A DNA stretch of 63,996 bases, counting the filler, from Catajapyx aquilonaris (taxonomy: Eukaryota), in assembly GCA_000934665.2 (NCBI GenBank). It is 3 parts of 3 records of this genome, joined end to end, with 100 filler letters (N's around TTAATTAATTAA, not from the genome) between each part and the next. Parts side by side here need not be neighbours in the genome. Positions count along the whole stretch, not along the records: positions 43,394 to 63,996 come from JYFJ02006225.1; 2 more parts are not named here. The stretch is one strand, 5' to 3'. Positions 21,632-63,981 of this stretch are shown here, piece after piece. Both the position numbers and the translations under genes were made by a program. Under the pieces are notes generated by a model, which did no database searches, was not told where the DNA came from, and saw only the letters and a list, made by a program, of their open reading frames with translations. Position 1 is the first letter of the stretch, and every line of letters starts with the position of its first letter.

Positions 21632-21731
21632 NNNNNNNNNNNNNNNNNNNNNNNNNNNNNNNNNNNNNNNNNNNNTTAATTAATTAANNNNNNNNNNNNN
21701 NNNNNNNNNNNNNNNNNNNNNNNNNNNNNNN
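21632..21731. other. Artificial contig-joining linker
   Basis: N44-TTAATTAATTAA-N44 is exactly 100 bp, and the 12-mer places stop codons in all six frames. Confidence 0.95.
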
Positions 21732-43293: not shown

Positions 43294-43393
43294 NNNNNNN
43301 NNNNNNNNNNNNNNNNNNNNNNNNNNNNNNNNNNNNNTTAATTAATTAANNNNNNNNNNNNNNNNNNNNNNNNNNNNNNNNNNNNNNNNNNNN
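43294..43393. other. Artificial contig-joining linker
   Basis: N44-TTAATTAATTAA-N44, identical to the linker at 21632. Confidence 0.95.
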
Positions 43394-43967
43394 CAGGTTT
43401 TGGCGTATCGTGTTGTTGTTTACTTACTACGACGCGATACGCCATAACCTGGCAACAACTGCGCGCCATCTATCAACAAAACAGTCCGCTCCACTTGTGC
43501 CTCTCGCGTGACGCGTCTGAGCGCACCCGTTCCTCGTCTATGAACCCCCTCTAGATGGCGTTTCCGGACACGGTTTCCTATGTCAAAAATGTTTGTCTTG
43601 GTCCCCTCTATCACCCCTAGAAGTTTGTCGGTTGAATTCATTTACACCCTGTATGTCCATTGGGTTTTGTCCACTTCCAATAACCTAGTAAAATATCCCA
43701 AAAGGCCTCACATTCAGCCGTTTTCAAATTCTAGTGATTTGTCCCTCCCCAGGGTATCGCGCAATATGTCTGAAACATGATAATCCTGTTCAACTTTCAA
43801 ATAATAGTCAGAAGAAGCAATAATGGCCTCGAAGAAAGGCTTGGCGTCCACCACGATCTCACGACTTTGTACGGCGGAGTGGACAAGGCTTGGCTCCCAG
43901 ACACTATCTCACAGGGTTTTTCGGCGGAAGACTTGGCGCGTTTTTTACGAGTGCGTGTTTGAGGGGA

Positions 43968-44122
43968 TTCAGTATACTCGACTACATACCAGATTTAGGT
44001 ATCCCATCAGGCATTCTGAAAACTCGCACTGTAAAAGGTGGCAAAACAACACGTTTAATACCTAACCACAGACATAATTAAGAAACAATTTAAAATTAAT
44101 CAAACCTCTCCTGTTAATCCAT
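43968..44122 (-). pseudogene. Fragment of an OBP-like gene (exon 3 plus flanking intron)
   Basis: Exon 44028-43990 encodes CEFSECLMGYLNL with intact AG/GT. The flanks closely match 45307-45464. The upstream donor is mutated and the other exons are absent. Confidence 0.75.
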
Positions 44123-44893
44123 TATGATGTGTAGCATGAATTTTTAATGTTACCAAATTTGAATAATTTTTTTGTTAATTAGGATGACCACATTATTTAC
44201 TTTACGCGTCTTGCACCAAAAGTATTGTTATCAGATTGTTACATTTGGCAAATATCAAAAAACTGTTCTCCAAATTTTGCGGAAATCTCAAGTAAATATG
44301 ACCTTGATCATTTAAGTGCTATTCAAAAGAAATCGTAAGGGAAAATCATTAATCAATATCAATATCAAAATTATGGCAATATTTTGAGTATGACCATCTC
44401 ATGGAGCATAAAATATTAAAATTGCCTTTCTAATGCACATATAAAACATAAGATGCGACCTGATCTTCTCCCAGTTATGGTCCTCAACTGTTGAAGGCCA
44501 CCATTGGCTTATTCTATCCTTGAACCCTTTTTGCACGACTACATTGCACTTTGTGTGACATAAGCGTAATGGCATACATGAGTACAGCTGTGGTATTTTC
44601 CAGCAATATTCGAGATGGTCTAGTAACATTTCGGCCCACTTGATTTGAAGTAACCCCTAGTCAACTGTTCCAAACTTTGAAACGATAATTTTTTTTTTCA
44701 TTTTCACTTTATTTATTTTACCCCATTGGCAGAATCGGTGTTCCATTAGGGGGGGGGGTGGAATACCACCATTGGATGGGGCCAAGGATAGCATAGGGAA
44801 GGAAGGAAGCGGCTGTGGCCTATTTCAATGACAGTGACTAAAGAAAATTACATATCACGAACGTAGATGCCACATCATTATCCTTTGCAGTCC

Positions 44894-45672
44894 TCAGGAA
44901 TATTCGCTGCATTCCTGTAAGAGAAGATTGCATAATTATAGCCATTGCATGTTCATACTGGAATCACCCTTCTGATGATGTACCTCGTGATATTTCACCG
45001 TTGCACAAACTAGTGGTTGCACTAATATCTCGCAGCCGTCTCCTGATTCACCACCTGCTTTGATTTTAATCACTAGTTATTTTGTAAATGGTCTCATTAC
45101 ATGCAGTACAACAAGCAGATTGTGTAATACCCACTCACCACTTTCCTTGCAGTCATTAACGAGTCCAGCAAAATATTCTTTACTTTCCTCATATCCTTCG
45201 CCAAAGAGGAAGTCCGCCACCGCTTTAGGTTTTAAGGTCTCTTCCTCGTCAGTCTAGTGACAATAAACCAGAAGTTAGTCTCATACGTGATGTCAATTGC
45301 ACATTATTCAGTATACTGGATTCAACTGTACATACCAGGTTCAGGTATTCCATCAGGCATTGCGAAAACTCGCACTGTAAAAGTGGGCAGAACAACGCGT
45401 TATCTAACCACAGACATAATTAAGAAACAATTTAAAATTAATCAAACCTCTCCTGTTACTCCATCAGCTTCATTACAATGCTTTGTTGCTTCATTGAAAT
45501 TTTCCGCATTCTGACCAGACGGGGAATCTTCAGGGCGACGGCAATGGGCGGGCTAAATACACATTGGCATTAGTAATCAAGTTTATGTTAAAATATTTTC
45601 AAAAAATAATTTTCATACCTCGTCTTGGGCTGCTGCGAGGGCTGAGAGGAGAAGAATGGCTGCGAAGATCAT
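44894..45672 (-). CDS. Secreted Cys-rich odorant-binding-protein-like protein (copy B), 6 coding exons, 130 aa
   Basis: Exons are 45672-45619, 45552-45460, 45374-45336, 45253-45139, 45054-44984 and 44914-44894. All introns are GT-AG and 66-85 bp. Product: MIFAAILLLSALAAAQDEPAHCRRPEDSPSGQNAENFNEATKHCNEADGCEFSQCLMEYLNLTDEEETLKPKAVADFLFGEGYEESKEYFAGLVNDCKESGGESGDGCEILVQPLVCATVKYHEECSEYS. It has a signal peptide and C-X41-C-X10-C-X8-C spacing. The gene model is strong; the family call is by pattern only. Confidence 0.8.
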
Positions 45673-45891
45673 TGTTGCTTGGTTGTTCCAAACGGTGTGA
45701 AAGCTATACCTGCATTTTCCTGTAGTTAAATAACATTGATTATCTTTCGGTTTATGATTGCAACCCTTTCCTGTGAACTTGTGAAGTGACAGATTTGTCC
45801 AAATCGCTTCCTGTGGCCTGCTTCTGTTGATATCAGTTAATATTATTCACTGTACTGATTAATGAGAATTCTCTGTAGGCATATAATAATA

Positions 45892-46264
45892 CAAGTTGCG
45901 GCACCCGGCGCGGCGTTGCCCGGGAAGAACTGAATGAAGGGAAAACACCTGCCAGTAGCCCCGTCAAAATTTTCACGCACAGAGAGCTGCCATGACAGTT
46001 TTCCCAGCCGTTTTGGACTTGGCAAAAAGTGGACTTTTGCACGTGCCACCTTGTCCATCTGCTCCTGATTAAGCCGCCGGAGAACAATAGCTCCTCTCCG
46101 GCGCTCCCTCCTCCCACCTGCTCACAATCTACTCTAATCCCACCTCAGCTGCAACCCCTCCCGTCCTTCCCACCCGGACCGCAGATGGCAGGCAAATGAC
46201 GGTTGGCAGGCGGACAGACAGACAGAAAGACAGACAGACTCACAAACGGCTTTATTTATATAGA
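45892..46264 (-). mobile_element. Non-autonomous Helitron (373 bp)
   Basis: The minus strand reads A|TCTATATAAATAAAG, then (GTCT)n, then hairpin CCCGGGCAACGCCGCGCCGGGT, ending CTTG|T. It is inserted in an AT dinucleotide with no TSD. Confidence 0.75.
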
Positions 46265-46367
46265 TTAATATATTTAACTTTTATTTTATTTTTAGGCCAT
46301 GCAGTTATATGATGACTAATACAGAAAACCTAATTCGACAAGTGAGACAGATTCGCATCAGGATCTA

Positions 46368-48110
46368 TCAGGTGGATGGAACATGTTGAAAGACACACCA
46401 TTTTACTTCAAGTACAAAGGAAATGAAAGCAAATCCGGTACCGAAGAGAAGCAATTGAAAAGGAGCATTCAACTGTCCCAACTGGAATGACTGCCAGCTG
46501 CCATTGTCATCAAACGGCATCTTGAAATATATGAGGTTGCCCAGGTAGATCCTTATTGACAGAATGACTCGTGACATATGATCCAACAACCCAGAGTCAG
46601 CTGTTATGATCATAGCTCTGTTTACTGACTCATAAATGACCGAGTGTCGATTAACAATCACTCCTGCTATCAAACCAGGGAGGTCACTCTCCACAATGTG
46701 CAGGTCATACGGTAGGGGAAATACGCCTAGAGCCAAAATAGCATTCCAGTAACCAGCGTGGACTAAACAGGCAAATTTTTCTTTCATATCTATGGGCAAG
46801 CACTGTTTGAAAGCTTCATTAAAGGTGGGGTATATCTTAACTTCAGAGGCAATTTGTTTGTTAATTTCATTATCACCACTAATTATAGAAGAGAAGTATG
46901 TGTCTGGTATCATCAGAGATCCACATTCGAACTTCATATCTATTAAATCCTGGAGTGACTCCACGTTTTTTATGGGTTGGGTCACCAAATTTTGTAACAT
47001 ATATGATGAAAAGTAGATGGAGATGATAAGGCAGACATGATAGTAAATACAAAGAATAATCTGGACAGAAAGAGTTATCTTCTTCATGCCCGAACTTTGT
47101 CCCAGAAGTGGGGGCACAACATGGACAATAAATATTTCTATCCAGCTAACACGTTTTTGCTTAGTAAAGGATGCTCCAAAAATGACGGTTGTAATCATCG
47201 TAAGTGCAATAATTAAAATAAATGATGCGACCCAAGTAAATGGAGTGAGCAACAATACCCATGCGGTGTGAGCATTGTTTTTCTTCGTCACAATAAGAAT
47301 CTTGCTAATTTCATGAGGTTGAGCAAATCCGTAGCTCGTTTGACTTATAAGGTAAGAAAAGTGGTTTAAATAGTACTTATCTCCAACAGTAGGATACGTT
47401 TTTTCGTAATAATTTAAATAACTTATCAGAATCTTGTTAAAATATGGGTGAGTGTTGTAGATGCTAATATTTCGTCCATTGCAGTTGACAGTGTGTATCT
47501 CGCGAAAAAGTTTGACTACGGATGTTGCATTGTGTTTGATCGTCACAGAATAATCTCCATTGTTGCAGAAGTAGCAGGGAATGATTGATGTGAAGTAGAT
47601 ATTGCCATTTTGACGTCTCAACTGATCAATTCCAACTCGGTTTGGAACCAGCGCCATTTCTTCTGCAATAATTTCCTGAGTCAATCCCATTGTGAAGTGA
47701 TAGATATTGAAATTGTTCAAACCTCGGCTGTACATCGGCGGTTCGTTAATCAGTTCAAGATATAACAACTTTTGGTGTAATGATATTCCGCCGTTAATGA
47801 CCGTTAAAAAGCACTGGCCTGACATCTGTGTCGCTTCCGTATCATTTTGTATGATAGATGATATGACCAGTGGTGTCTTGACCATTCTTGTCAGATGAGA
47901 GAGTCCATTGTTCAACACTGGTCCATCGTGCAGGATGACTACTGAGCAGTTGACCAACCTTACGTCTGCTTCTTGCATCTTGGATACAACTTCAGCAAAC
48001 AAGATGTCTTCAGAGTCTTTATGCGACACCAGGGTGATGTTAGCACATGCAAATTCAGTTGACATCACCACTAAAAACAACGTTATCCTTAAAGGTACCG
48101 ATGCCATCAT
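46368..48110 (-). CDS. Divergent ionotropic receptor (variant iGluR) IR-1, intronless, 580 aa
   Basis: Signal peptide; LLTPFTW before M1; LLGQS pore loop; ISIYFSSYMLQNL (SYTANL-equivalent); VESLQDL; NRAMIITADSGLL; FQLGQLNAPFQLLLFG..FISFVLE last TM. Confidence 0.88.
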   Translation of the reverse strand: MMASVPLRITLFLVVMSTEFACANITLVSHKDSEDILFAEVVSKMQEADVRLVNCSVVILHDGPVLNNGLSHLTRMVKTPLVISSIIQNDTEATQMSGQCFLTVINGGISLHQKLLYLELINEPPMYSRGLNNFNIYHFTMGLTQEIIAEEMALVPNRVGIDQLRRQNGNIYFTSIIPCYFCNNGDYSVTIKHNATSVVKLFREIHTVNCNGRNISIYNTHPYFNKILISYLNYYEKTYPTVGDKYYLNHFSYLISQTSYGFAQPHEISKILIVTKKNNAHTAWVLLLTPFTWVASFILIIALTMITTVIFGASFTKQKRVSWIEIFIVHVVPPLLGQSSGMKKITLSVQIILCIYYHVCLIISIYFSSYMLQNLVTQPIKNVESLQDLIDMKFECGSLMIPDTYFSSIISGDNEINKQIASEVKIYPTFNEAFKQCLPIDMKEKFACLVHAGYWNAILALGVFPLPYDLHIVESDLPGLIAGVIVNRHSVIYESVNRAMIITADSGLLDHMSRVILSIRIYLGNLIYFKMPFDDNGSWQSFQLGQLNAPFQLLLFGTGFAFISFVLEVKWCVFQHVPST

Positions 48111-48415
48111 GATGTTTTTTTGCCAACTAACTGGTCACAAGTCCTCTGTGGAACTGCAAATCTTTTTTATGGAAAGAACTCCATCATCGATCTGTGTAAT
48201 GCCAATAGTTTCAAGAGTAGGGGCCTATAGCACTTAGAGTAATTCACTTTGCTCCGTTGCTGACCTGCTTAACAATTCCTGTGAGAGTCCTAGCAAATAA
48301 ACCCGTGTCAATCTTTTCAAAGTAATTTTCTATAGTGGTCCATTCATTTTATTGTCGCACTATTTACCTTTCCACCTTCCTTTGTACAGTACAATATAGG
48401 GACTGAATAGTTCTG

Positions 48416-48578
48416 GAGGCGTATACTCATCCCGGTCACTCGCAATCGACAAAGTCGATTGACGTCAAAATGACGTCGGCAATTCTCCTCGCCCTGACCT
48501 GGTCATCATTGGCGACGTCATTTTGATGTCAATCGACTTTGTCGATTGCGATGAGTGACCTGGATGAGTATACGCCTC
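48416..48578. mobile_element. Harbinger-type MITE (163 bp), CTG TSD
   Basis: CTG|GAGGCGTATACTCATCC...GGATGAGTATACGCCTC|CTG, with inverted arms of ~60 bp. Confidence 0.75.
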
Positions 48579-48734
48579 CTGGTCTGTACTGTGAATTAGT
48601 TGCACGTGAATAATTTCATACATTAGTTTATTATTTAAACAGTTAATTATTTTGAATTAAAGGAACTGCTCCAGTTACTTGGACGCGAGGAATGCTGAAT
48701 ATGCTTTTAAATACACACGATGTATTACACTTTG

Positions 48735-49559
48735 CTAATTGCTTACGGTAACAACTTCTATGTACAGTACTTCAAATGCAAAACATATACTGGCAAAACC
48801 AGCACCGACAAGAAGCAACTGCAAAGGCGCCTTCATGTGATCCAATTGGAACTTCCGAGGATTGTTCTCACTTTGGTCAAACACACTCATTTTACCAGAC
48901 ATGAACAGTTGAAGCTTTTGCATATGGGAATTAATCGCAAGCCTTCTTCGGAACATGAGGTCAAACAATAGGTATTTCAGGAAAAAGTTTGTCGATAGAT
49001 GTTACGTTGCTGATGGTTGTAACAGAATAGTTTCCTTCGTTGCAAAAGTAGCATGGAAATGATAGTCGGAAATAGGTCTTGCCATGTTCACGTCTCAGTT
49101 GATCTATTCCAATTCGGTTTGGGACTGACTCCAACTCTTGCTCGATTTTTGTCGGTGTCAATCCTCCATCAATGTGATACACAATGAAGTTCGTTAATCT
49201 TTCAGTCTCTAATGTCTCGTTAATCATCAACTCAAATCTGCCAGCATTAAGCATTGGCCTGACTGCAACAATGGTAAATTTTGCCATCCTATACCATCTT
49301 GCTTGTTTGACCGTATGACTGTAGGAGTTTTTATCATTTTTGGAAGATCTGACAGTCCATTGTTCAATACTGGTTCGTCGTGCAAGATGACCACTGAGCA
49401 GTTGACCAACCTTGCGTCTGCGTCCTGCATCTTGGATACAACTTCAGCAAACAAGTTGTCTTCCGAGTCTTCATGGAACACCATGCTGATGTTTGCATAG
49501 GCAAAGTCAGCCAATATCACCACTAAATACACGGATATACAGGAAGGTACCGATGCCAT
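48735..49559 (-). pseudogene. IR-2 pseudogene (frameshift plus large internal deletion)
   Basis: The N-terminus MASVPSCISVYLVV is paralogous to IR-1. A frameshift lies near 49285. The sequence runs to PCYFC..KLFPEIPIV and then jumps to the last TM (FQLDHMKAPLQLLL). Confidence 0.85.
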
Positions 49560-50025
49560 CTTGATGCTCCTGATGTAAAATGTATGTGTGTTGTCAGTTT
49601 CTGTGCGTCTAACTGGCCAAAGGTCCTTCAAGGAACTGTAAAGCTTTTTATCTTATAAAATAACCATATTGATCAGTAATGTCAATTCCTGGAAGAGTAT
49701 GAAGCAATATATTAGAGTAACTTACTTGTAGCAATCCATTTGATTGCTGCACTATTTACCTTTACACGCCTTTACGCTTCATGACATGCGTACACACCCA
49801 CCCAAACCCACAAAATAGCTATTTCATATTAACCAGAGTCAGTAGCGAAATGAAATGAATGGTTTGGTATGTAATCATTTCGTAATGTAAGGTTGGGTGG
49901 TATGAATTAAATTAATTGAAAATATTTAAATTTGATTTACTCGTATATTCATGAAACATGTTGGATTTTTCTACAATTTGTGTTGATACAGCTGGAACTA
50001 CATGTGAAAATCCGTCTTGAAATTA

Positions 50026-50734
50026 TTACGCAGCACTGCATTCCTGTAAGCAGTAACATGAAAATAGTTTTAATGAAAAATAATATGATTACCCTACTTA
50101 ATTGAAATAGCATTTACCTGTCTCAAAGTCATCCCTGTACACACAATTTGTCTGGAGGCCTTACATTCTAATGGTGCTCCTCCTGCAATGGGTAATTATT
50201 AGTTACTATTCTAACTCCAAATAACAGTTATAACTGACCGGTTTCCGTGCAGTTATCAATGATATTCATCATGAACTGCTTAGTGTCAGTGTGTCCTTTG
50301 GAATAAATGAAGTTAACGAAATCTAATGATTTTATATTTCCGTCCATATCGAGCTGAAATGAACATAAGTAATTATTAATTAGTACAGTATGCTATTTTT
50401 TTGTACTGTTAATTACCATGCCAAGTTTCATGAACTGACACGTTTCCATCTCGCACTGTGAAGACACAATAGGATATTAGCACACTTTGCACATCTAACT
50501 GCGACATAAATCTTACCGCATTATCAGCATGTAGACATGTCAAAATCGCATCAAGCAAGTCGCATTCAGAGGTCTGCGGTATTGAATCAGGGTAGAGGCA
50601 ATGAGCCGGCTAAATTGTAGAAAAGAAATGGTCCACTCTGTACTAATCTTCATCAAATTTTAATGGAATCTACTTACTTCATGTTGGCCAACTGCTAAAG
50701 TTGACATGAGGATCAGTAGAGCAAAAGCGATCAT
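50026..50734 (-). CDS. Secreted Cys-rich odorant-binding-protein-like protein (copy A), 6 coding exons, 128 aa
   Basis: Exons are 50734-50678, 50609-50517, 50455-50417, 50353-50239, 50182-50118 and 50043-50026. Intron phases (0,0,0,1,0) and the 93/39/115-bp exon lengths match copy B. Product: MIAFALLILMSTLAVGQHEPAHCLYPDSIPQTSECDLLDAILTCLHADNACEMETCQFMKLGMLDMDGNIKSLDFVNFIYSKGHTDTKQFMMNIIDNCTETGGAPLECKASRQIVCTGMTLRQECSAA. Confidence 0.8.
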
Positions 50735-50780
50735 TGTTGCTAGTTGTCACACAGGAGAGATATGACTCAAAGAACATGGC

Positions 50781-53005
50781 TTATAGGCTTATCTGAAACC
50801 ACTTCCTCTTCTTGTGGGATTTAATCAGATTAGAGCAGCTGACGTTTGCTAAAGTACTTATTATATGCACCACTTCCCATACGAAACAGGTGATAGCCAA
50901 TCCGGAACCGGCAAGCATCAACTGAAATGGAGCCTTCAACTGATTCAGTTGGAAACGTTGTGGCCCGGGGTCCGGGGTCCAACCATATCCATTGTGAAGT
51001 AGTTGGAAAGAATCATGCAGAAGTAAAGGTACACGAACACTAGTAGTTTGACAGGAGGGGTCATCTTCTTCAGTCCCGGACCTTGTCCCAGGAGAGGAGG
51101 AAAGGTGTCCAGGAGGAGTGTTGTCATCCACTGGGACAATTTAAACCCGGTGCATCTTCTGTCAGAGGCCAACAATATAACAGTGGTGACCATCCCAACA
51201 GTAATCAGCAGGAGAAATGTGACTGTCCACTCAAATGGTATCAGATGCAATGCCCATGCAGTGTGAATTGCACTTCTTTTCGTTATGATCAGCATCTTTC
51301 TAATTTTGTACGGTTGCATGTAAGCTAACTTCTGCATTGGATAAAATTTTATCAACTGCTGATGGCAAAATGAATATTTCTTTCCAATATCTGACTCTGT
51401 GGTTTGGTAATTTAAATATTTTTGGAGCATATTGTTATAATGCCGTAGATAATGATGATTAAGTCAACCAAAGTTAACTTAGCCTCAGGGCGTACTACTA
51501 CGACTTATAGTGAATAGGCAACCTGCAATGGTTCCTATTCCGTACCGTCAGATCAATCTAATCGGTAAAAGAGCTCAGCAGGGAGTAACGAGACATCAAT
51601 ACAGGTTTGCATCAAACACAGGTATTTATTGGACAGACATGATCAACAACTACAGTCGGGTTCTTGAGACGACATCTCACCTAGTCGCACTCCGTCTGCT
51701 TCTGGTAGACATCCTGGCGTCTGCTCGTTGTTGACCGTCCTTCTCGGCGTATAGGCGTCAGGTCAGGGCTCCAGGTCTTCAGTGGTCACTCCTCGTCTAC
51801 CTCGATGGTCCACCGAACGACTCCCCTCCCTAAACGTTCACGTTACTTGGACACTACCAAGTTACTAACTCCCCAAATCCGAATGCCAATTGAATGCCCC
51901 TTCTCTAGTAACCCATCCCCTATTTATGGAACTCAGGCTGGAAGTTAAAGGGCGTGGGAATCCTGAGAGCACCGCCCTCCAGGATTCACATGACTTTAAG
52001 ACAGTCATGTACAGGAAACGTGATCTAGGAATAAGGATGTTTCTTAGCATTTCGGGTTCATAGGGTCCGCTGACTACTCAGAGGAAAACTAACAAGATGA
52101 GGTCATCCTGAATAGTTGGGCAACTGTGTGGTCAGCCTAAAAGGTCATGAATCCACACTGTGTTAGAAAGAATGACTCGCCCAGGATGTGGAGCACTCAT
52201 GCTACCACAAACCCCCTTAAATAGAGTTCAGGTCAGAGCCCTTTCAGCACAACGTTAAGATAACGTATAATTGCCGAAAATGAACTAGGTTTTAGCCCTA
52301 AATGTAACAATATTACTAATCGGTGTGACACAGTTGCAAATGTGAATTTTCCTCCCATTTAAGTTGACAGTCCTGAAATCAGGAAACACTTCTCTGAAGA
52401 ATGTGACGTTGTTTCTGATGCATGGTCACTGAATAGTTTCCATTGTCGCAAAAGTAACAAGGCGAGATCAGTCGAAAGCGAATTTTGCCATTTATGTGTT
52501 CAAACTGGTCGATTCCAACTCGGTTTGTCATTGACTCAAATTCCAACTCGATCGTTTCTTTGGTCATCCCATCTTTCATGTGATGAATATTAAAATTTCT
52601 CATTCCCCGAGGATACTTTAGTCCCTCATAAAACAAGTCGTAATTTAAATTTTGACTTGTGTTTGAATGAGAGTAATGAACAGTCACGAAGCACTGTCCC
52701 GCCCTCTGCATCACCAGTGGATGGTTGTTCCCTCCCCCAATCCGATGCACGCTGGAAGCAATGACAAGAGACGTGTTGACACTTGTTGTCAGTGGTGACA
52801 GTCCAGTTGGCAGCACTGGTTCGTCGTGGAGGATGGCGACGGAGCAGTTGGCCAGCCTGCCATCCGCCTCTTGAATCTTGGTCACTGTTTCGGCGAACAA
52901 TCTTTCTTCCGAGTCCTCATCACTGGGCAGGAGAGTGACCTTTGTGTGGACAACACCAGTGATAAAGATGAGTACAAACGTGGAACTTGCGTATGAGACC
53001 AACAT
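50781..53005 (-). pseudogene. IR-3 pseudogene (solo-LTR insertion, frameshift, ~0.5-kb deletion)
   Basis: The 5' part is nearly identical to IR-4. It is interrupted at 51433-52309, and MDMVG is joined out of frame to GPQRFQLNQLKAPF near 50980. Confidence 0.9.
51433..52309 (-). mobile_element. Solo LTR (877 bp), probably Gypsy-type
   Basis: ATAT|TGTTA...TAACA|ATAT gives a 4-bp TSD. On the minus strand a TATA-like ATAAATA (51927-51921) precedes AATAAA (51630-51625). Removing the insert restores colinearity with the IR paralogues. Confidence 0.85.
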
Positions 53006-53708
53006 CGTTGAACTGTAGTTTAATCTGTACCTTCCTCTGGAAGATCAGACGCGAAAATGGTCAAGAAATGAAACAACGCTGGGTTGAGTGGTGGCTTTCA
53101 CTACGATGACACACTTGTCAACAAATCGATTCTTTCAACACAAGGTCTCCTTTGAAATCCCATGTCTTTCCCACTGACAGCTAAACATATGCTTTCATCT
53201 ATCGCTGATCCATTCAAAACACAATTGTGGTATACAAACCGCAAGACTATTTTTTTCAAACAGCGGAATTTTCAGTTTTTCATCAGTGTCAGAATTATGG
53301 CTAACAATGTCTCTCAACACAATTTAACTATTGGGCCAGCAGACCACTCGGGTAGTTTTAGATAGTCCATCAATTTTTACTGTATACAGTGCTCTTCAGA
53401 GTTGAGACGCGGCAATAAAGGCTGCTGGTGCATTGTGAAAGGTAATGAATAGTTAAAACTTCTTACATTAACATTTTAATGTTTAATGGTCTTTCACATT
53501 GTACAACAATATTCGCATACTTCCCAGCAGACCCATCACGTTCAAAGCCAACATAACAATTTAAGTAATGGTAACCTTTGAAGTTTGAATGTCTTTTATC
53601 GCAGTGTGCAGGTGTGAAAGAATCAATATGCAAAAAGCTCGTGTAGGGAAAAAGATGTTTGCCCAATTGTGACTACGTATTAAAGATTATATGAAAATGC
53701 CCTTGACC

Positions 53709-55481
53709 TCATAACGTTGCACTGTACAACACTTCACATATATAACAAAACACAGATAATACGGCACCAGCAAATAGCAACGTAAAAGGAGTCCTCAACT
53801 GGTTCAGTTGGAAGGATTTTGGTCCATTCTCATCAATCGGACTCACAACCCCTGACTTGAACCACATCATCTGATGTATGTAAGAAACAACTTCCAAATC
53901 CATGCGAAGCATACCACTAAACAGACCCATGTCAACCAATATCAGTACTGCTCTATTTAGAGATTCGTAGATGACTGAGTATTTCCTCATCTCTAGGCCG
54001 ACCATCACGTATGGGAGGTCACTCTCTGACATGTAAAGCTGGTCACGGTGAAGGTCCCTGTCAATGTCAAGGTAATACTTCCAGTATCCGTCTTCTATCA
54101 AACAGGCGTACTTCTGGGTCAGGGCGATGGCTATGCACTGTTTAAGTGACATCAAAAAGAGTGTGCCCCATCGTATTTCCACCTTCGAGGCAATAGTTCT
54201 GTGAATATTGTTGCTAGTAGAATTTCTGATTGAGTCAAAGTATCCTTGTGCAGACAGAGATCCCCACTTGTATTTCATGTCAATCAAGTCCTTCAAAGTG
54301 TCCACATTCCTTGTACGTGTAGTCACAAAGATTCCCACCATATCTGATGTGAAGTAATTGGAAAGAAGCATGCAGAAGTAAAGGTACACGAACACTAGTA
54401 GTTTGACGGGAGGGGTCATCTCCTTCAGTCCCGGACCTTGTCCCAGGAGAGGAGGAAGGGTGTCCAGGAGGAGTGTTTTCATCCACTGGGACAATTTCAC
54501 CCCTGTGCATCTTCTGTCAGAGGACAACAATATAACAGTGGTGACCACCACAACAGAAATCAGCAAGAGAAGTGTGACTGTCCACTCAAATGGCATCAGA
54601 TGCAATGACCATGCGGTGCTAATTTCATTTCTTTTAGTTGTTATTAGAATCTTTCTGATTTCGTAAGGATGGGTGTAAGCTAATCCATGCTGCATTGGAT
54701 AAAATCTTATCAACTGCTGTTGGCAAAATGCATATTTCACTTTAACGTGTGATTCTATAGTTTGGTAATTTAAATATTTCTGAAACGCATCATTTATGGC
54801 TGTGAAGCAGTTGCATATGTGAATTTTTCTTCCTTTGAGATTTACAGGAATCCCCAATTCAGGAAACACTTTCTTGACCGATGGTAAGTTGTGTCTGATG
54901 GTCACTGAATAGTTTCCATTGTAGCAAAAATAACAGGGCGAGATCAGTCGAAAGCGAGTTTTGCCATTTATGCGTTCAAACTGGTCGATCCCAACTCGAT
55001 TTATCATGGACTCCGATTCCCAATCGATCATATCTTTGGTCATCCCGTCTTTCATGTGATAAACATTAAAATTGCGCAGTCCCCGAGGATACTTTAGTGC
55101 CTCATAAAACAAGTCGTAATTCAAATTTTGAGGTGTGTTTGAATCCAAGTAATGAGCAGTCACGAAGCACTGTCCCGCCCTCTGCAGCACCAGTGGATTG
55201 TTGTTCCCTCCCCCAATCCGATACATGCTGGAAGCAATGACAAGAGACGTGTTGACACTAGTTGTCAGTGGTGACAGTCCAGTTGGCAGCACTGGTTCGT
55301 CGTGGAGGATGGCGACGGAGCAGTTGGCCAGCCTGCCATCCGCCTCTCGAATCTTGGTCACTGTTTCGGCGAACAATCTTTCTTCCGAGTCCTCATCACT
55401 GGGCAGGAGAGTGACCTTTGTGTGGACAACACTAGTGATAAAGATGAGTACAAACGTGGAACTTGCGTATGAGACCAACAT
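53709..55481 (-). CDS. Divergent ionotropic receptor IR-4, intronless, 590 aa
   Basis: Signal peptide, PCYFC, LMPFEW, LLGQG, LSNYFTSDM, VDTLKDL, YACL, NRAVLILVDMGLF, FQLNQLRTPF..ICE. Confidence 0.88.
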   Translation of the reverse strand: MLVSYASSTFVLIFITSVVHTKVTLLPSDEDSEERLFAETVTKIREADGRLANCSVAILHDEPVLPTGLSPLTTSVNTSLVIASSMYRIGGGNNNPLVLQRAGQCFVTAHYLDSNTPQNLNYDLFYEALKYPRGLRNFNVYHMKDGMTKDMIDWESESMINRVGIDQFERINGKTRFRLISPCYFCYNGNYSVTIRHNLPSVKKVFPELGIPVNLKGRKIHICNCFTAINDAFQKYLNYQTIESHVKVKYAFCQQQLIRFYPMQHGLAYTHPYEIRKILITTKRNEISTAWSLHLMPFEWTVTLLLLISVVVVTTVILLSSDRRCTGVKLSQWMKTLLLDTLPPLLGQGPGLKEMTPPVKLLVFVYLYFCMLLSNYFTSDMVGIFVTTRTRNVDTLKDLIDMKYKWGSLSAQGYFDSIRNSTSNNIHRTIASKVEIRWGTLFLMSLKQCIAIALTQKYACLIEDGYWKYYLDIDRDLHRDQLYMSESDLPYVMVGLEMRKYSVIYESLNRAVLILVDMGLFSGMLRMDLEVVSYIHQMMWFKSGVVSPIDENGPKSFQLNQLRTPFTLLFAGAVLSVFCYICEVLYSATL

Positions 55482-56580
55482 CGTTGCACTGTAGTTGAAT
55501 CTGTACCATCCTCTGGAAGATCAGACGCGTAAATGGTCAAGAAATGAAGGAACGCTGGGTTGAGTGGTGGCTTTCACTACCACGACACACTTGTCAACAA
55601 ATCGATTCTTTCCCGTTGACAGCTAAACATATGCTTTCAAGTATCGCTGATCCATTCAAAACACAATTGTGGAATACAAATCCGCAAGACTATTTTTTTC
55701 AAACAGCGGAATTTTCAATTTTTCGTCACTGTCAGAATTTTGGCTAACAATGTCTCTCAACACAATTTAACTATTGGGCCAGCAGACCACTCTGGTGGTT
55801 TTAGATAGTCCATCAATTTTTACTGTATACAGTGCTCTTCAGAGTTGAGACGCGGCAATAAAGGTTGCTGGTGCATTGTGAAAGGCAATGAATAGTTAAA
55901 ACTTCTTACATTAACATTTTAATGTTTAATGGTCTTTCACACTGTACAACAAAATTTGCATACTTCAATTCGATGAATTAATATTCGATGGCACATTACC
56001 GGCGATGTTTTCGTTATTTAATGTAGATATATACATTGGGCTTTTTATTTTAAAAGAGAAGGAAAAGTTTACACATGACATTTAACAATAATAATATATA
56101 TCATGCGGTAAATAAACACTGCCGGCATATAGTAAGTCATACCAAGTGAAATTACATAATATACAATAGATTGCCATTTTAGCGTCTATGAAAATTGTAC
56201 AATTATTAAGAGATTTAGCCAGCATACAGGTTAATGGCTTAAGTGATCTAGCTTACAACAGTTTTTTATATATAGGGAACTGGTAGATAAGATTAGATAA
56301 AATACAGGAAGCTTACACCGGATTGCAGGGATAATAATTCGACATTCTAAGCGGCGTACATAATGAGTTTCATATATACTAGGTGATGCCGTTCATCTGT
56401 TAAATATGTGAGGATCTATTTCACAATATATTTAATGACACCGACTAATACAAAAAAAAATCTTCTGTGCGAGTAAAGTTGTTTAAAATGGCCATAATTG
56501 AATACATAGTAATATATCGTATACTGTTCGCAATCACATGAATTGGAGCAACATACTTCTAATGTGAATTATTTTTCCAG

Positions 56581-58408
56581 CTATAATATTTTAAGGTTCC
56601 CTAATCTTAATAATTTTCCCTTACTATAACGACATGACTTTACTTGGTACAGCACTTCACAAACGAAAGAAGTGATAGCAATTCCAGCACCCGCAAAGAG
56701 CAATTGAAAAGGAGCCTTCAACCGACTAATTTGGAAGCTCTGCGGGTTTGTTTCATCAATGGGAGATGGAGCCACTGACTTAAACGACACCATCTGGTGT
56801 ACGTATACATACCTATGAAAGGCCATGTCGATAATTCCCTTAAGCAGTCCCATGTCAACCATTATCAACGTTCCTCTGTTCAGAGACTCGTACGTGACTG
56901 AGTATTTCATCATCACTAGGCCCACCAACTCCTATGGAAGGTCACTCTCCGAAATGTGAAGCTGGTCACGGTGCAGGTCACTGTCGATGTCAAGAAAATA
57001 CTTCCAGTATCCGTCTTCTATCAAACAGGCGTACTTCTGGGCGAGGGTGGTGGCTATGCATTTAATCAATGAAGGGTAAAAATCTTTAAAATCATATAGT
57101 TCTACATGTGACGCAATTTCTCTATGAATCAAGTTGGTACTAGTGTTACGTATTAAATCGTAGTAATACTGAGAAGAGACTGAACCCCATTTGTATTTCA
57201 TGTCCAGCAAGTCCTGCAAAGTGTCCACATTCTTGGCACGTTGGGAAGTCAAGTTTCCAACCATATCCATTGTGAAGTAGTTGGAAAGAAGCAGGCAGAA
57301 ATAAAGGTACACGAAAACTAGTAATTTGACGGGAAGGGTCATCTCCCTCAGTCCCGGACCTTGTCCCAGGAGAGGAGGAAAGGTGTCCAGGAGGAGTGTT
57401 TTCATCCACTGGGACAATTTCACCCCTGTGCATCTTCTGTCAGAGGACAACAATATAACAGTGGTGACCACCACAACAGAAATCAGGAAGAGAAGTGTGA
57501 CTGTCCACTCAAATGGCAACAGATGCAATGACCATGCGGTGTGAATTGCATTTCTCTTAGTTATGATTATAATCTTTATAATTTCGCAAGGGTAGGTGAA
57601 AGCTAGGCCACCCTGCATTGCAGACAATGTAATTAATGCCTGTCCATTAAATGAGTATTTTTCTCGTATATCTGACTTTATGGTTTGGTAATCTTAAATA
57701 TTGCTGAAGGATATGATTAATGGGTGTGAAATATCTCCGTATGTGAATCTTTCTTCCGTTAATGTTGACAGTGCCAACTACTGGAAATACCTTTTTCACG
57801 GAGGTGACGTTGTTCCTGATAGTGACGGAATAGTTTCCATTGTCGCAAAAGTAACAAGGCGAGATCAGACGAAAGATGGTCCCGTCATTTTCTCTCCCAA
57901 ACTGGTCGATCCCAACTCGGTTTATCACACACTCCGATTCCCACTCGATCATACCTTTGGTCATCCCGTCTTTCATGTGATAAACATTCAAATTGCGCAG
58001 TCCCCGAGGATACTTCAGTGCCTCATAAAACAAGTCGTAATTCAAATGTCGACTTGGGTTTGAATCCAAGTAATGCACAGTCACGAAGCACTGTCCCGCC
58101 CTCTGCATCACCAGTGGATAGTTGTTCCCTCCCCCAATCCGATGCATGCTGGAAGCAATGACAAGAGACGTGTTGACACTTGTTGTCAGTGGTGACAGTC
58201 CAGTTGGCAGCACTGGTTCGTCGTGGAGGATGGCGACGGAGCAGTTGGCCAGCCTGCCATCCGCCTCTTGAATCTTGGACACTGTTTCGGCGAATAATCT
58301 TTCTTCCGAGTACTCATCACTGGGCAGGAGACTGACCTTTGCTTGGGCAACACCAGCAGTGATGAAGATGAGTATAAACGTGGCACTTGCTGTGTATAAG
58401 AACACCAT
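56581..58408 (-). pseudogene. IR-5, full length but with a +1 frameshift and a premature stop
   Basis: Close paralogue of IR-7. It has an extra base at ~57693 and an in-frame TAG at 56934-56932 where IR-7 has TAT. Confidence 0.85.
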
Positions 58409-58759
58409 TGCGGTACTGTGGTTGATTATGAACTTTCTTCCTGAATATCGGGTGCGAATATGGTCGAGCAATAAGACATTTTTCCATTGCGTGACTTTCA
58501 ATACGTCGATATGCTTAACTGCATAACGACTATTTTTACACAACAGTTCCTTTCAATAATATCAAGTACCGGTACTTTTCTTATAACAGCTATAGAGACG
58601 ATTTCGACTGTGTCTGATCGATGCAAGACAAAATTGGGAAATACGAAGTCCGCAATGATGTTTCAAATAAAATTCCAGGAACTCCAATCTTGGCCACTGT
58701 CAAGCCAAACAATCGTTCTCCCATTGTCACTTTTCCAATGCTGTGGAAATAACGTTTTT

Positions 58760-60550
58760 TTAGTGCATAGCATGCCGTAATGATTTACTCAACAACACCT
58801 CACATACGAAACAAGTGATAGCAATTCCAGCACCGCCAAACAGCAACTGAAAAGGAGCCTTCAACTGATTCAGTTGGAAGCGTTGTGGTCCGTTTTCATC
58901 ATTCTGACGCTCAACACCTGACTTAATCCACCTCATCTGATTAACGTATGCAGCGGCATCAAAGCTCATGTGGAGCATACCTGTAATTAGTCCCATGTCA
59001 ACCAATAACAATGTGGCTCTGTTCAGAGATTCGTAGATTACTGAATACTGCCTCATAATCAGGCCTACCATCGCATATGGGAGGTCACTCTCGGAAATGT
59101 GCAGCTGGTCACGGTGCAGGTCACTGTCAATGTCAAGGTAGTACTTCCAGAATCCGTCTTCCATTAAACAAGCATACCTCTTGATAAATGTGGTGACTAT
59201 GCATTTTTTGATTGAAGAATAAGTCTCATTGCTCCGAAATATTTCAACATTCGATGCAATTTCCCTATGAATAATGTTGGTAGTATTATTATGTATTGCA
59301 TCGTAGTACCCACGAGGAAATGTCGATCCCCACTTGTATTTTAAATCAATCAAATCCTGCAAAGAGTCCACATTCCTTGTACGTGTCGTCGCAAAGTTTC
59401 CCACCATATCTGATGTGAAGTAATTGGAAAGAAGCATGCAGAAGGAAAGGTACACGAAAACTAGTAGTTTGACAGAAGGGGTCATCTCCTTCAGTTCCAG
59501 ACCTTGTCCCAGGAGAGGAGGAAAGGTGTCCAGAAGGAGTGTTTTCATCCACTGGGACAATTTCACCCCGGTGCATCTTCTGTCAGAGGACAACAATATA
59601 ACCGTGGTGACCATCACAACAACAATCAGCAAGAGAAGTGTGACTGTCCACTCAAATGGCATCAGATGCAATGACCATGCAGTGTGAATTGCATTTCTCT
59701 TAGTTACAATTAGAATCTTTCTAATTTTGTAAGGATGGGTGAAAGCTAAGTCAACGTCCATTCTAGGCATTTCTCGTATTATATGATGCTGGCAAAAGGT
59801 GTATATTTCTTTTATGGGTGATTTTATGGTTTGGTAATTTAAATATTGCTGTAGTATATTATTAATGGGATAGAAATCCTGGCAAATATGAAGTTTTCTT
59901 CCGTTGAAGTTGACAGTGCCCAGTTCAGGAAACACTTTTTTGAGGGATGTCACATTGTCTCTGATGGTGACAGAATAGTTTCCGTTGTCACAAAAGTAAC
60001 AAGGGGAGATGAGTCGAAAGTTTGTCTCGCCATTTATTCTCTCCAACTGGTCGATTCCAACTCTGTTTATCATACACTCCGATTCGATTTTTATAGGTTT
60101 TGTAGTCTCCCCGTCTTTGATGTGATAGAGGTTGAAATTGTGCAATGCTCGAGGATACTGCAGTTTCTCGACAAACAATTCATACTTCACCTTTTGATAT
60201 GTGTTTGAATCCGAGTAATGAACAGTCACGAAGCACTGTCCCGCCCTCTGCATCACCAGTGGATAGTTGTTCCCTCCTCCAATCCGATGCATGCTGGAAG
60301 CAATGACAAGAGACGTGTTGACACTTGTTGTCAGTGGTGACAGTCCAGTTGGCAGCACTGGTTCGTCGTGGAGGATGGCGACGGAGCAGTTGGCCAGCCT
60401 GCCATCCGCCTCTTGAATCTTGGACACTGTTTCGGCGAACAATCTTTCTTCCGAGTCCTCATCAAGGGGCAGGAGAGTGACCTTTGCCTGGGCAACACCA
60501 GCGATAAGGATGAGTACACACGCGGCACTTGCACAGGATAACGACGTCAT
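58760..60550 (-). CDS. Divergent ionotropic receptor IR-6, intronless, 596 aa
   Basis: Same motif order as IR-4, with an uninterrupted ORF. Confidence 0.88.
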   Translation of the reverse strand: MTSLSCASAACVLILIAGVAQAKVTLLPLDEDSEERLFAETVSKIQEADGRLANCSVAILHDEPVLPTGLSPLTTSVNTSLVIASSMHRIGGGNNYPLVMQRAGQCFVTVHYSDSNTYQKVKYELFVEKLQYPRALHNFNLYHIKDGETTKPIKIESECMINRVGIDQLERINGETNFRLISPCYFCDNGNYSVTIRDNVTSLKKVFPELGTVNFNGRKLHICQDFYPINNILQQYLNYQTIKSPIKEIYTFCQHHIIREMPRMDVDLAFTHPYKIRKILIVTKRNAIHTAWSLHLMPFEWTVTLLLLIVVVMVTTVILLSSDRRCTGVKLSQWMKTLLLDTFPPLLGQGLELKEMTPSVKLLVFVYLSFCMLLSNYFTSDMVGNFATTRTRNVDSLQDLIDLKYKWGSTFPRGYYDAIHNNTTNIIHREIASNVEIFRSNETYSSIKKCIVTTFIKRYACLMEDGFWKYYLDIDSDLHRDQLHISESDLPYAMVGLIMRQYSVIYESLNRATLLLVDMGLITGMLHMSFDAAAYVNQMRWIKSGVERQNDENGPQRFQLNQLKAPFQLLFGGAGIAITCFVCEVLLSKSLRHAMH

Positions 60551-61047
60551 TGTGATATATCACACAGAATGGTTTTCCGCCTGCCACACTACAAGACCTG
60601 TCTTCTGCAAATCGAGACGACGCTTTTACGCCGTTCCAGATATATATAGGATGAAGTCCGCAAACTAATTTGAGTAATGGTGCCTTGAATGATTTCATGC
60701 TCTAATTGTGTCGGTTATAGTTGTCAAAGGAAACAACATAGTGTGACAAGCTTTTGTAATATCATTCTTCTAAAAGGCTAAAACCTTCTTTCCAGCGGCA
60801 TAATTTTTGAGCAGAAAAGGAAAAGAACAAAAATTAAGAACAAAATCAAAAAGTTTGGAATTATTCCAAAGTATAAAATTTTGAACTTTTCACAAAATCC
60901 AGGCCAGGCACAAGATGGCAAACCGCGGTGGACTTATCGGAATTATTTGGGGATATTTATTCAAGCACAATTTGTATGGCGGCTTGCGTGGGTGGCAGCC
61001 GCCAGCAGATGGCAGCACATATCCAAGCGTAATATTTTAAGATAATC

Positions 61048-62850
61048 TCAATAATTTTTCTTACTATAACGAAATGACTTTACTTGGTACAGCAGTTCAC
61101 AAACGAAAGAAGTGATAGCAATTCCAGCACCTGCAAAGAGCAATTGAAAAGGAGCCTTCAACCGACTAATTTGGAAGCTCTTCGGGCCTGTTTCATCAAT
61201 GGGAGATGGAGCCACTGAATTAAACGCCACCATCTGGTGTACGTATACATATCTATGAAAGGCCATGTCGATAATTCCCTTAAGCAGCCCCATATCAACC
61301 ATTATCAACGTTGCTCTGTTCAGAGACTCGTACATGACTGAGTATTGTCTTATCACTAGGCCGACCAACGCATATGGAAGGTCACTCTCCGACATGTGCA
61401 GCTGGTCACCGGGCATGTCACTGTCGATGTCAAGAAAATACTTCCAGTATCCGTCTTCTATCAAACAGGCGTACTTCTGCGCAAGGGTGGTGGCTATGCA
61501 TTTTTTCAATGAAGCGTAAAAATGTTTAACATCAAATATTTCGATATGTGATGCAATTTCTCTATGAATCAAGCTGGTAGTAGTGTTACGTATTAAATCG
61601 TAGTAATACTGAGAAGAGACTGAGCCCCATTTGTATTTCATGTCCAGCAAGTCCTGCAAAGTGTCCACATTCTTGGCACGTTGGGATGTCAAGTTTCCAA
61701 CCATATCCATCGTGAAGTAATTGGAAAGCAGCAGGCAGAAGTAAAGGTACACGAACACTAGTAATTTGACAGGAGGGGTCATCTTCTTCAATCCTGGACC
61801 TTGTCCCAGGAGAGGAGGAAATGTGTCCAGGAGGAGTGTTTTCATCCACTGGGACAATTTCACCCCTGTGAATCTTCTGTCAGAGGACAACAATATAACA
61901 GTGGTGACCATCACAACAGTAATCAGCAAGAGAAGTGTGACTGTCCACTTAAATGGCATCAGATGCAATGACCATGCAGTGCTAATGACATTTCTCTTTG
62001 TTATGATTAGAATCTTTCTAATTTCGTAAGGATAGGTGAAACCTAGGCCAACCTGCATTGCATACAATGTAATTAATGCCTGTCCATTAAATGAGTATTT
62101 TTCTCGTATATCTGACTTTATGGTCTGGTAATTTAAATATTGCTGAATGACATCATTCATGGGTGTGAAACATCGGCGTATGTGAATTTTTCTTCCGTTG
62201 ATGTTGACAGTGCCAACTGCTGGAAATACCTTTTTCACGGAGGTGACGTTGTTCCGGATAGTGACGGAATAGTTTCCATTGTCGCAAAAGTAACAAGGCG
62301 AGATCAGTCGAAAGCTGGTCTCGCCATTTTCTCTCTCAAACTGGTCGATCCCAATTCGGTTTATCACACACTCCGATTCCCACTCGATCATATCTTTGGT
62401 CATCCCGTCTTTCATGTGATAAACATTAAAATTGCGCAGTCCCCGAGGATACTTTAGTCCCTCATAAAACAAGTCGTAATTCAAATTTCGACTTGTGTTT
62501 GTATCCGAGTAATGAACAGTCACGAAGCACTGTCCCGCCCTCTGCATCACCAGTGGATAGTTGTTCCCTCCCCCGATCCGATGCAAGCTGGAAGCAATGA
62601 CAAGAGACGTGTTGACACTTGTTGTCAGTGGTGACAGTCCAGTTGGCAGCACTGGTTCGTCGTGGAGGATGGCGACGGAGCAGTTGGCCAGCCTGCCATC
62701 CACCTCTTGAATCTTGGTCACTGTTTCGGCGAACAATCTTTCTTCCGAGTCCTCATCAAGGGGAAGGAGACTGACCTTTGCTTGGGCAACACCAGCAGTG
62801 ATGAAGATGAGTATAAACGTGGCACTTGTGTATGACATCATCAGCATCAT
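61048..62850 (-). CDS. Divergent ionotropic receptor IR-7, intronless, 600 aa
   Basis: Same motif order as IR-4 and IR-6, with an uninterrupted ORF. Confidence 0.88.
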   Translation of the reverse strand: MMLMMSYTSATFILIFITAGVAQAKVSLLPLDEDSEERLFAETVTKIQEVDGRLANCSVAILHDEPVLPTGLSPLTTSVNTSLVIASSLHRIGGGNNYPLVMQRAGQCFVTVHYSDTNTSRNLNYDLFYEGLKYPRGLRNFNVYHMKDGMTKDMIEWESECVINRIGIDQFERENGETSFRLISPCYFCDNGNYSVTIRNNVTSVKKVFPAVGTVNINGRKIHIRRCFTPMNDVIQQYLNYQTIKSDIREKYSFNGQALITLYAMQVGLGFTYPYEIRKILIITKRNVISTAWSLHLMPFKWTVTLLLLITVVMVTTVILLSSDRRFTGVKLSQWMKTLLLDTFPPLLGQGPGLKKMTPPVKLLVFVYLYFCLLLSNYFTMDMVGNLTSQRAKNVDTLQDLLDMKYKWGSVSSQYYYDLIRNTTTSLIHREIASHIEIFDVKHFYASLKKCIATTLAQKYACLIEDGYWKYFLDIDSDMPGDQLHMSESDLPYALVGLVIRQYSVMYESLNRATLIMVDMGLLKGIIDMAFHRYVYVHQMVAFNSVAPSPIDETGPKSFQISRLKAPFQLLFAGAGIAITSFVCELLYQVKSFRYSKKNY

Positions 62851-63824
62851 TGCACTTTGGCTGCTGCTTCACTTAACTATGGATATTCAGGCGCAAAGTT
62901 AATCAGGAAACATCAAAACTCCTGATTGCAAGGCTTGATCTATGTCGTGACACTCAATTACAGCAGGATTGTTGTGAATAACTCTTATTAATTCCAATGT
63001 GTCTTTGTTTCACCACCTAAACAGATGTCTTCAACTGTCGCTGATCTATTCAATGCTTATACTGACGAGTTACTTGCAGGCGAATAATGAAGTATTCATT
63101 AATTCATTGATGTGAGATTCTAAGCGGCTGTGCAGGCAATCGGCTTACTAAAGTCATACACATTGAGATATTCTATTCTCTAGGAGATAATTACACGGTT
63201 AGCAGTAGTTGTCATGTGTAGCTCTGTTGATTAAGAATTCAGCAGCGCCCACATTGGACAAAGGGGGGCGTCACACCACCTGAAATTCCAACGTTCCTCT
63301 GTTCAGAGACTTCTGAATGATTCAGTACTGTCATTGGTTAATTACAAGCATTTCATGTAACCACCTGCTGCACAGTGCACACAGAAATAGGGTCGATGAT
63401 TGTGCTGTGGAGTGTGGAGGCTCAGATGTGCCAGATATATTTTTACAGATGTAACTGTACTGTTCACAGTTGCAGTAAATTAGTGACGATAGAATTGAGC
63501 TATGGGTAACTATATTATCACTGCATAGCGACATTATTGATGTTAAAATCAATGTCTTTATTATATACCAGAAATTGATTATTGCTTTGTAGCACAGGTT
63601 ACTGAATATACTTGATCCATTTTTCATGTCTTTGTTACATTGATAAATGCATTGTATTTTAGCACCTTATTTTCAAACTTTTAGGCTGGCACACCTACTA
63701 AAGAAAAAATGTCAAAATGTCAGGAATTTATTACATTGTTGCAATGAAAGCAGTAAATTTTAATACACTACACTGGTAGAGACGAATAATCGGGATGAAC
63801 CACTTTCCTATCGTCGTCTGACAT

Positions 63825-63981
63825 TTAATATCCGCACTCCTGTAATGCAATAAAAATATAATGCAATGAACTGCATGATGGACGTCCGACATTTAGTGGA
63901 CACTTCATACCTGTCGAAAAGCCATAGATGCGCACGCAAGTTGTCTGGACACATTGCACTGATCCATTGTCCAGCCACCTC
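63825..63981 (-). CDS. OBP-like protein (copy C), last two exons; 5' part lies beyond the window
   Basis: Exon 63981-63911 (phase 1) encodes GGWTMDQCNVSRQLACASMAFRQ, and exon 63839-63825 encodes ECGY*. These match exons 5-6 of copies A and B in phase and Cys spacing. Confidence 0.75.

Follow-up and report, generated by a model that had tools for sequence, protein, structure and literature searches.

On the minus strand of a 63,996-nt stretch of DNA from Catajapyx aquilonaris (assembly GCA_000934665.2), here termed the window and along the whole of which all positions are counted, lies a 20-kb cluster of seven intronless genes of the ionotropic receptor (IR) type, of about 600 aa, four of them intact and three broken, with small secreted genes between them. 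The small genes are here called odorant-binding protein (OBP)-like, a label derived from how the cysteines of their products are spaced and from the size, charge and leader of these products. The genes look real and the interleaving of the two kinds of gene is genuine. We read the locus, with a probability of about 60%, as a birth-and-death chemosensory cluster in which two unrelated families lie side by side without functional coupling. The cluster is an ordinary though tidy one of mixed chemosensory type, and its value is that it shows, in clean and well-delimited form, how two fast-evolving families of chemosensory type expand and decay within one array.

Gene order and composition of the cluster

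Along the minus strand the genes follow one another as OBP-C, IR-7, IR-6, IR-5psi, IR-4, IR-3psi, OBP-A, IR-2psi, IR-1, OBP-B and a fragment of OBP-B, with spacers of 974, 497, 336, 1099, 703, 46, 451, 624, 695 and 771 bp in that same order. Once the young IR copies are collapsed, this reduces to an alternation of small gene (O) and receptor (I), O-I-O-I-O, in which every gene lies on the minus strand. The gene order and the single orientation had been claimed in an earlier note on this DNA, and they are borne out by tblastn, by exon models and by a hidden Markov model of OBP-A and OBP-B (A+B HMM). The gene list of that note, its pseudogene calls and its division of the receptors into two subfamilies agree equally well with an open reading frame (ORF) scan, with tblastn and with a phylogenetic tree.

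A stop-to-stop scan of positions 43000-63996 gave four minus-strand ORFs that run without interruption for 588-606 codons; the related ORFs found in the intervals are shorter. Used as tblastn queries, these four intact ORFs located seven minus-strand IR copies within 46371-62868 and no further IR copy elsewhere in the window. The intact genes are IR-7 (61048..62850; 600 aa), which is intronless and is identified by its ORF, a match to the Pfam family Lig_chan and its predicted fold, and IR-6 (58760..60550; 596 aa), IR-4 (53709..55481; 590 aa) and IR-1 (46368..48110; 580 aa), which are identified by ORF and tblastn. All four possess a Met start followed by a hydrophobic leader. The three broken copies display different kinds of damage. 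IR-5psi (56581..58432), which retains 93.5% nt identity to IR-7, is broken by one inserted nucleotide near 57693 and by a TAG in its reading frame near 56932. IR-3psi (50781..53005), recovered as tblastn pieces, is divided by an insert of about 870 bp (51437-52305), of which there is no second copy within the window, and has no equivalent of IR-7 residues ~395-558. IR-2psi (48735..49586), a truncated sister of IR-1 according to its tblastn pieces and the tree, keeps IR-1 residues 6-110, 128-213 and 516-579 in different frames and has lost residues ~214-515.

The receptors fall into two subfamilies. Protein identity is 72-74% among IR-7, IR-6 and IR-4 (72% between IR-6 and IR-7), and IR-1 shares some 41% with these three, as it does with IR-3 to IR-7 overall. 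In a maximum likelihood tree computed from the seven copies over their first ~700 nt, the split between {IR-1, IR-2psi} and {IR-3 to IR-7} obtains a support of 100/100 and, within the larger subfamily, IR-7 groups with IR-5psi and IR-4 with IR-3psi. The ratio of nonsynonymous to synonymous divergence (dN/dS) is 0.41-0.43 among IR-7, IR-6 and IR-4, at a dS of about 0.4, and dS against IR-1 reaches 1.7-2.4, which is saturated. Judging from these ratios of roughly 0.4, the intact copies are under constraint, albeit moderate. As a separate observation, the DNA self-comparison contains a 125-nt stretch near the IR 5' end (49350-49474, matching parts of IR-3 to IR-7) that is 74-76% identical across the two subfamilies.

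Structure of the small secreted genes

Two of the small genes are complete in the window, each modelled on the minus strand as six exons. OBP-A (50023..50734; 128 aa) consists of exons 50734-50678, 50609-50517, 50455-50417, 50353-50239, 50182-50118 and 50043-50023 (57, 93, 39, 115, 65 and 21 nt), and OBP-B (44894..45672; 134 aa) of exons 45672-45619, 45552-45448, 45374-45336, 45253-45139, 45054-44984 and 44914-44894 (54, 105, 39, 115, 71 and 21 nt), three of the lengths (39, 115 and 21 nt) being equal in both genes. Their introns measure 56-74 nt in OBP-A and 66-84 nt in OBP-B, are bounded by GT and AG in 10 of 10 cases (five in each gene) and present the same succession of phases (0, 0, 0, 1, 0). 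Genes made of exons this small escape ORF scans. Both products start with a hydrophobic leader and have in common a short EPAHC motif that spans the first splice junction. They share 29% aa identity (blastp E 1e-15 to 9e-21) and eight aligned cysteines. With the leader cleavage sites set by eye, the mature proteins would comprise about 112 aa, with nine cysteines and an isoelectric point (pI) of 4.58, for OBP-A, and about 119 aa, with eight cysteines and a pI of 4.17, for OBP-B.

At the DNA level, the introns and flanks of OBP-A and OBP-B no longer align in the self-comparison, and the resemblance of coding exons between introns and flanks that cannot be aligned is what would be expected from selection on the coding exons. 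The start codons of OBP-A (50722-50746) and OBP-B (45660-45684) do lie in an identical 13-nt context, the remaining DNA being unalignable. The start codon of OBP-A is located only 46 bp past the point at which the IR-3psi reading frame stops (50735-50783), and hence the promoter or the 5' untranslated region of OBP-A would overlap the 3' end of the pseudogene. Unlike in OBP-B, OBP-C, IR-7 and IR-1, there is no AATAAA or ATTAAA in the 600 nt that follow the stop codon of OBP-A.

Two further members are incomplete. OBP-C (63825..63981, minus strand) is represented by its last two exons, exon 5 at 63981-63911 and exon 6, with the stop codon, at 63839-63825; only 15 bases of the window lie upstream of exon 5, and the rest of the gene lies beyond 63996. 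Exon 5 was found by the A+B HMM (E 0.0013), three OBP-C cysteines are matched in alignment by cysteines of both OBP-A and OBP-B, and the splice sites read as an AG acceptor, a GT donor and an AG acceptor. At the other edge of the cluster, a 156-bp fragment on the minus strand (43967..44122) emerged from the DNA self-comparison as a copy of 45306-45464, with 85.3% identity over 163 aligned columns. It runs from the end of OBP-B exon 2 through intron 2 and exon 3 into the start of intron 3, and its copy of exon 3 is matched by the A+B HMM at E 0.049. Run against all six reading frames of the window, the A+B HMM detected no additional copy of the small gene. A candidate at ~33.9-34.2 kb, proposed by weak tblastn matches (E ~0.1), was rejected, as these are not collinear and the A+B HMM failed to recover them (E 18-21). 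We also rejected the notion that the small exons are 5' exons of the IR lying downstream: exon 6 carries a stop codon in each of the three copies, and the IRs have a Met and a leader of their own.

The receptors belong to the ionotropic glutamate receptor superfamily

Both a profile search and the predicted fold lend good support to the assignment of the seven larger genes as divergent, IR-type members of the ionotropic glutamate receptor superfamily. Direct comparison yields a faint signal: Lig_chan (PF00060) is the only Pfam family present in all four intact IRs, with scores of 15.9-23.2 bits that fall under the cut-off of 30.8 (IR-7: E 6.8e-05, 23.2 bits), and a word-based search of 5.8 billion proteins with IR-7 returned nothing at E<=0.001. 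A profile made from the alignment of the four intact IRs, by comparison, gave 73 matches at E<=0.001 among 1.84 billion representative proteins (best E 5.3e-18). Lig_chan is found at E<=0.001 in 29 of the 30 best relatives, 25 of which reach the cut-off, and the named relatives among the ten that were looked up come from the springtail Orchesella dallaii (three), the bug Rhodnius prolixus and the barnacle Amphibalanus amphitrite. Against the PDB, the same profile obtained 19 matches at E<=1, of which 18 are glutamate receptors (best E 0.0066). Outside the channel half, residues 22-118, the N-terminal region that corresponds to the conserved 125-nt stretch, are the sole region of the IRs with a database relative, a single 161-aa protein without a Pfam family (P0006, E 1.1e-10).

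Predicted structure points in the same direction. An AlphaFold2 model of IR-7, based on a 36-row alignment, reached a mean predicted local distance difference test (pLDDT) value of 67.8; values of 70-95 prevail over residues ~270-600, which comprise the channel and the S2 half, and values are low over the first ~210 residues. Foldseek comparison of this model with the PDB gave, among the matches listed, glutamate-receptor chains only (best E 6.4e-15), at modest template-modelling (TM) scores of 0.25-0.48. Among these listed matches, the highest target-length TM scores (0.47-0.48) belong to 9nwq_A and 9jrg_A, GluD chains from which the amino-terminal domain has been deleted. The hydrophobic segments of IR-7 (303-321, 357-381 and 566-588), together with the leader, correspond to an M1, M3, M4 layout, and the proteins in general are 580-600 aa long, have their first membrane segment near residue 303 and lack a large amino-terminal domain. 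In all these respects (a length of ~600 aa, a leader, no large amino-terminal domain and the placement of M1, M3 and M4) the genes resemble the divergent IRs of arthropods, as they do in forming a tandem array that holds pseudogenes and in evolving under moderate constraint (dN/dS ~0.4). They differ from them in being very divergent, to the point that their direct Pfam score remains under the cut-off. Divergent IRs are reportedly often intronless and arrayed.

Are the small proteins odorant-binding proteins?

For the small proteins a role as OBP-like carriers and an OBP-type fold appear probable. The cysteines of OBP-B are spaced by 21, 9, 4, 41, 10, 8 and 8 residues, which, taking the first cysteine as C1, can be read as C1-x31-C2-x4-C3-x41-C4-x10-C5-x8-C6 with one extra cysteine pair. 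The classic OBP motif is given as C1-X15-39-C2-X3-C3-X21-44-C4-X7-12-C5-X8-C6 (PMC5958050), and four of the five OBP-B spacings fall within its ranges, the deviant one being C2-C3, with 4 residues instead of 3. OBP-A fits in three of five (C2-C3 of 4, C5-C6 of 7). The small proteins resemble the classic insect OBPs (PF01395, PBP_GOBP) in being secreted and acidic, with a mature mass of ~12-13 kDa, and, for OBP-B, in the C1-C2, C3-C4, C4-C5 and C5-C6 spacings of 31, 41, 10 and 8, all of them compatible with the motif as published (PMC5958050). They depart from those OBPs in the C2-C3 spacing, in the extra cysteine pair, in the ninth cysteine of OBP-A and in the lack of a PF01395 match, as judged from single-exon scans only. 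A further comparison can be made with the OBP-like proteins of chelicerates and myriapods, which, as described by Vizueta et al. (2017, 2018), are likewise small, secreted and named on remote similarity plus cysteine pattern (PMC5952958, PMC5381604), and which form lineage-specific expansions, such as the 21 genes of a centipede (PMC5952958; PMC5381604). According to their published description, on which the comparison is based, those proteins lack the same two cysteines as the Minus-C OBPs (PMC5381604), whereas the proteins reported here have eight or nine.

The small genes could instead code for another secreted, disulfide-rich family unrelated to chemoreception, an alternative that we regard as possible but distinctly the less probable. 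It would account for the non-canonical C2-C3 spacing and for the outcome of the similarity searches. None of seven single-exon translations matches any Pfam family at E<=10, though queries of 22-38 aa afford very little power; exon 4 of OBP-B has no usable match in the ESM atlas and an exon-4 alignment has none at E<=1 in the protein database, both being searches with a single exon and hence of little power; and exons 4 and 2 give, respectively, two and five weak matches in the PDB, consisting of glutaredoxin and conkunitzin noise at E>=0.65, with no OBP among them. Helical periodicity, measured as the hydrophobic moment at 100 degrees, does not significantly exceed that of shuffled sequences either (z 0.8 and 1.3). 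The weight of these searches is reduced by the length of the exons, which encode only 13-38 aa, and they have to be set against the 41-residue cysteine-free stretch and the other classic spacings of OBP-B, the partial agreement of OBP-A, and a combination of leader, mature length (112-119 aa) and pI (4.2-4.6) that is typical of OBPs.

Origin of the alternating order

The self-comparison of positions 43000-63996 makes it possible to ask which genes have been duplicated together. All the DNA repeats in this region are of a single family: they are IR-only, with ends 16-1170 bp past the coding sequences, apart from the 156-bp OBP-B fragment. There is no repeat unit in this region that contains one gene of each family, an older two-gene duplication being beyond detection at the DNA level. 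The recent dynamics of the locus are, in other words, those of two independent birth-and-death families. For the more remote past, the alternation of the two families, coupled with the fact that the two blocks of IRs are distinct subfamilies, makes one old duplication of a two-gene segment the most economical explanation, and such an event would have to be placed long ago, given that synonymous sites are saturated between IR subfamilies and that OBP-A and OBP-B retain no DNA similarity. It thus seems reasonable to propose that one IR gene and one small gene would first have become neighbours and that, long ago, a tandem duplication of the segment bearing both would have generated the alternating order. 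Each family may then have duplicated and decayed independently, with IR-only copies giving rise to IR-3 to IR-7, a partial copy restricted to the small gene giving rise to the fragment, and three of the IRs dying.

Several considerations weigh against this neutral account. Two alternations in 20 kb, on one strand, amount to more order than a single chance adjacency, and such order needs a duplication that carries both genes, which is the core of what the earlier note had proposed; furthermore, the neutral origin is adopted here as a default assumption. The last two exons of OBP-C are also nominally closest to OBP-A, as a unit formed by an OBP followed by an IR would have it. Over the sole stretch common to the three small genes (about 26 residues of OBP-C), identities are 11/25 for A-C, 10/26 for B-C and 8/26 for A-B, with no outgroup, a difference that is far too small to count. 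The earlier note had put forward a cassette of carrier and receptor duplicated as a unit. Of this proposal, the alternation and the distinctness of the two IR subfamilies stand, but the phase of the unit is ambiguous, as 'IR then OBP' fits the order just as well as 'OBP then IR', and the duplications that can be traced are all single-family. Regarding spacing, the tightest pair is IR-3psi followed by OBP-A (46 bp), and the distances from a small gene to the IR that follows it range from 451 to 974 bp.

The neutral account has to be weighed against two other histories. In one, the small genes would have arrived separately, through ectopic recombination or transposition-associated entries, and no two-gene segment would ever have been duplicated. 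The units of OBP-A and OBP-B and their flanks do lack DNA similarity, OBP-A does start 46 bp past a rearranged IR pseudogene, and transposase-like remnants do occur nearby in the window; nevertheless, genes whose products share 29% aa identity would not be expected to retain DNA similarity in any case, and three separate insertions of one family, all in the same orientation, into a 20-kb array make a less parsimonious history than a single adjacency with subsequent local duplication, for which reasons we consider separate arrivals unlikely. In the other, the carrier and the receptor would form a co-regulated or co-evolving pair, kept and duplicated as a unit, the carrier serving the receptor beside it. 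Some Drosophila OBPs act in sensilla with IR neurons, and the arrangement described here, with families alternating on one strand, short spacers (46-974 bp) and two blocks of distinct IR subfamilies each flanked by a small gene of its own, is what a functional cassette might look like.

Much of the evidence, however, argues against such a pairing. None of the duplications still recognisable by DNA similarity carried both genes, there is a single small gene on each side for five IR copies, the IRs directly before and after OBP-A are both pseudogenes, and the unit can be read in either phase. Moreover, insect OBPs come from support cells and the receptors from neurons, so that a shared promoter is not to be expected. 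A functional cassette strikes us as decidedly improbable, and the proposition that O-I-O-I-O records a duplicating module, made of a secreted carrier and a divergent IR that work and evolve as a pair, as very improbable indeed; the same low odds apply to the linkage being functional at all. A carrier-receptor function for the cassette is speculation, weakened by the single-family nature of every traceable duplication. By analogy with other clusters, a chromatin neighbourhood shared by the small genes and the IRs is conceivable. Were the pairing nonetheless true, chromosomal neighbourhood would map binding protein to receptor in an early-branching, hexapod-like lineage, and a functional neighbourhood would give genomics a rare means of approaching the long-standing question of which chemoreceptors are served by which soluble binding proteins, and in particular whether IR-based sensing makes use of dedicated carriers.

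Comparison with known chemosensory clusters

Clusters of OBP genes in Drosophila have been described as embedded in conserved arrangements together with non-OBP genes enriched for plasma-membrane proteins (PMC3845639). The parallel with the locus reported here is that OBP genes lie beside non-homologous genes, which in Drosophila are enriched in the category 'integral to plasma membrane' (Librado and Rozas 2013; PMC3845639). To explain this linkage, Librado and Rozas invoke a shared chromatin or transcriptional environment and not a partnership at the protein level (PMC3845639). The Drosophila clusters are, on the other hand, portrayed there as large, conserved and mixed neighbourhoods (mean of 8.3 genes) instead of two expanding families in alternation (PMC3845639), and the word 'ionotropic' is absent from the main text of Librado and Rozas 2013 (PMC3845639). 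A tool for the joint analysis of two chemosensory families, GALEON, has been presented (PMC11236287). A full-text literature search, judged from titles and the starts of abstracts, revealed no mixed or shared OBP-IR cluster, and of the 588 patterns that the IR alignment matched in a scan of metagenome contigs for related loci, not one was confirmed.

Other features of the window

At 21632-21731 and 43294-43393 the window contains two seemingly identical pairs of 44-N runs placed 12 bases apart, plus four single Ns. The second of these pairs lies some 570 bp past the OBP-B fragment, and the lower edge of the cluster consequently adjoins a gap or masked stretch. Elsewhere in the window, two long minus-strand ORFs (30791-32339 and 39130-41576) resemble transposase remnants, one of them with a weak RAG1-like match (E 0.0062) and the other with a weak match to Transposase_21 (E 0.0024), both with scores under the Pfam cut-offs.

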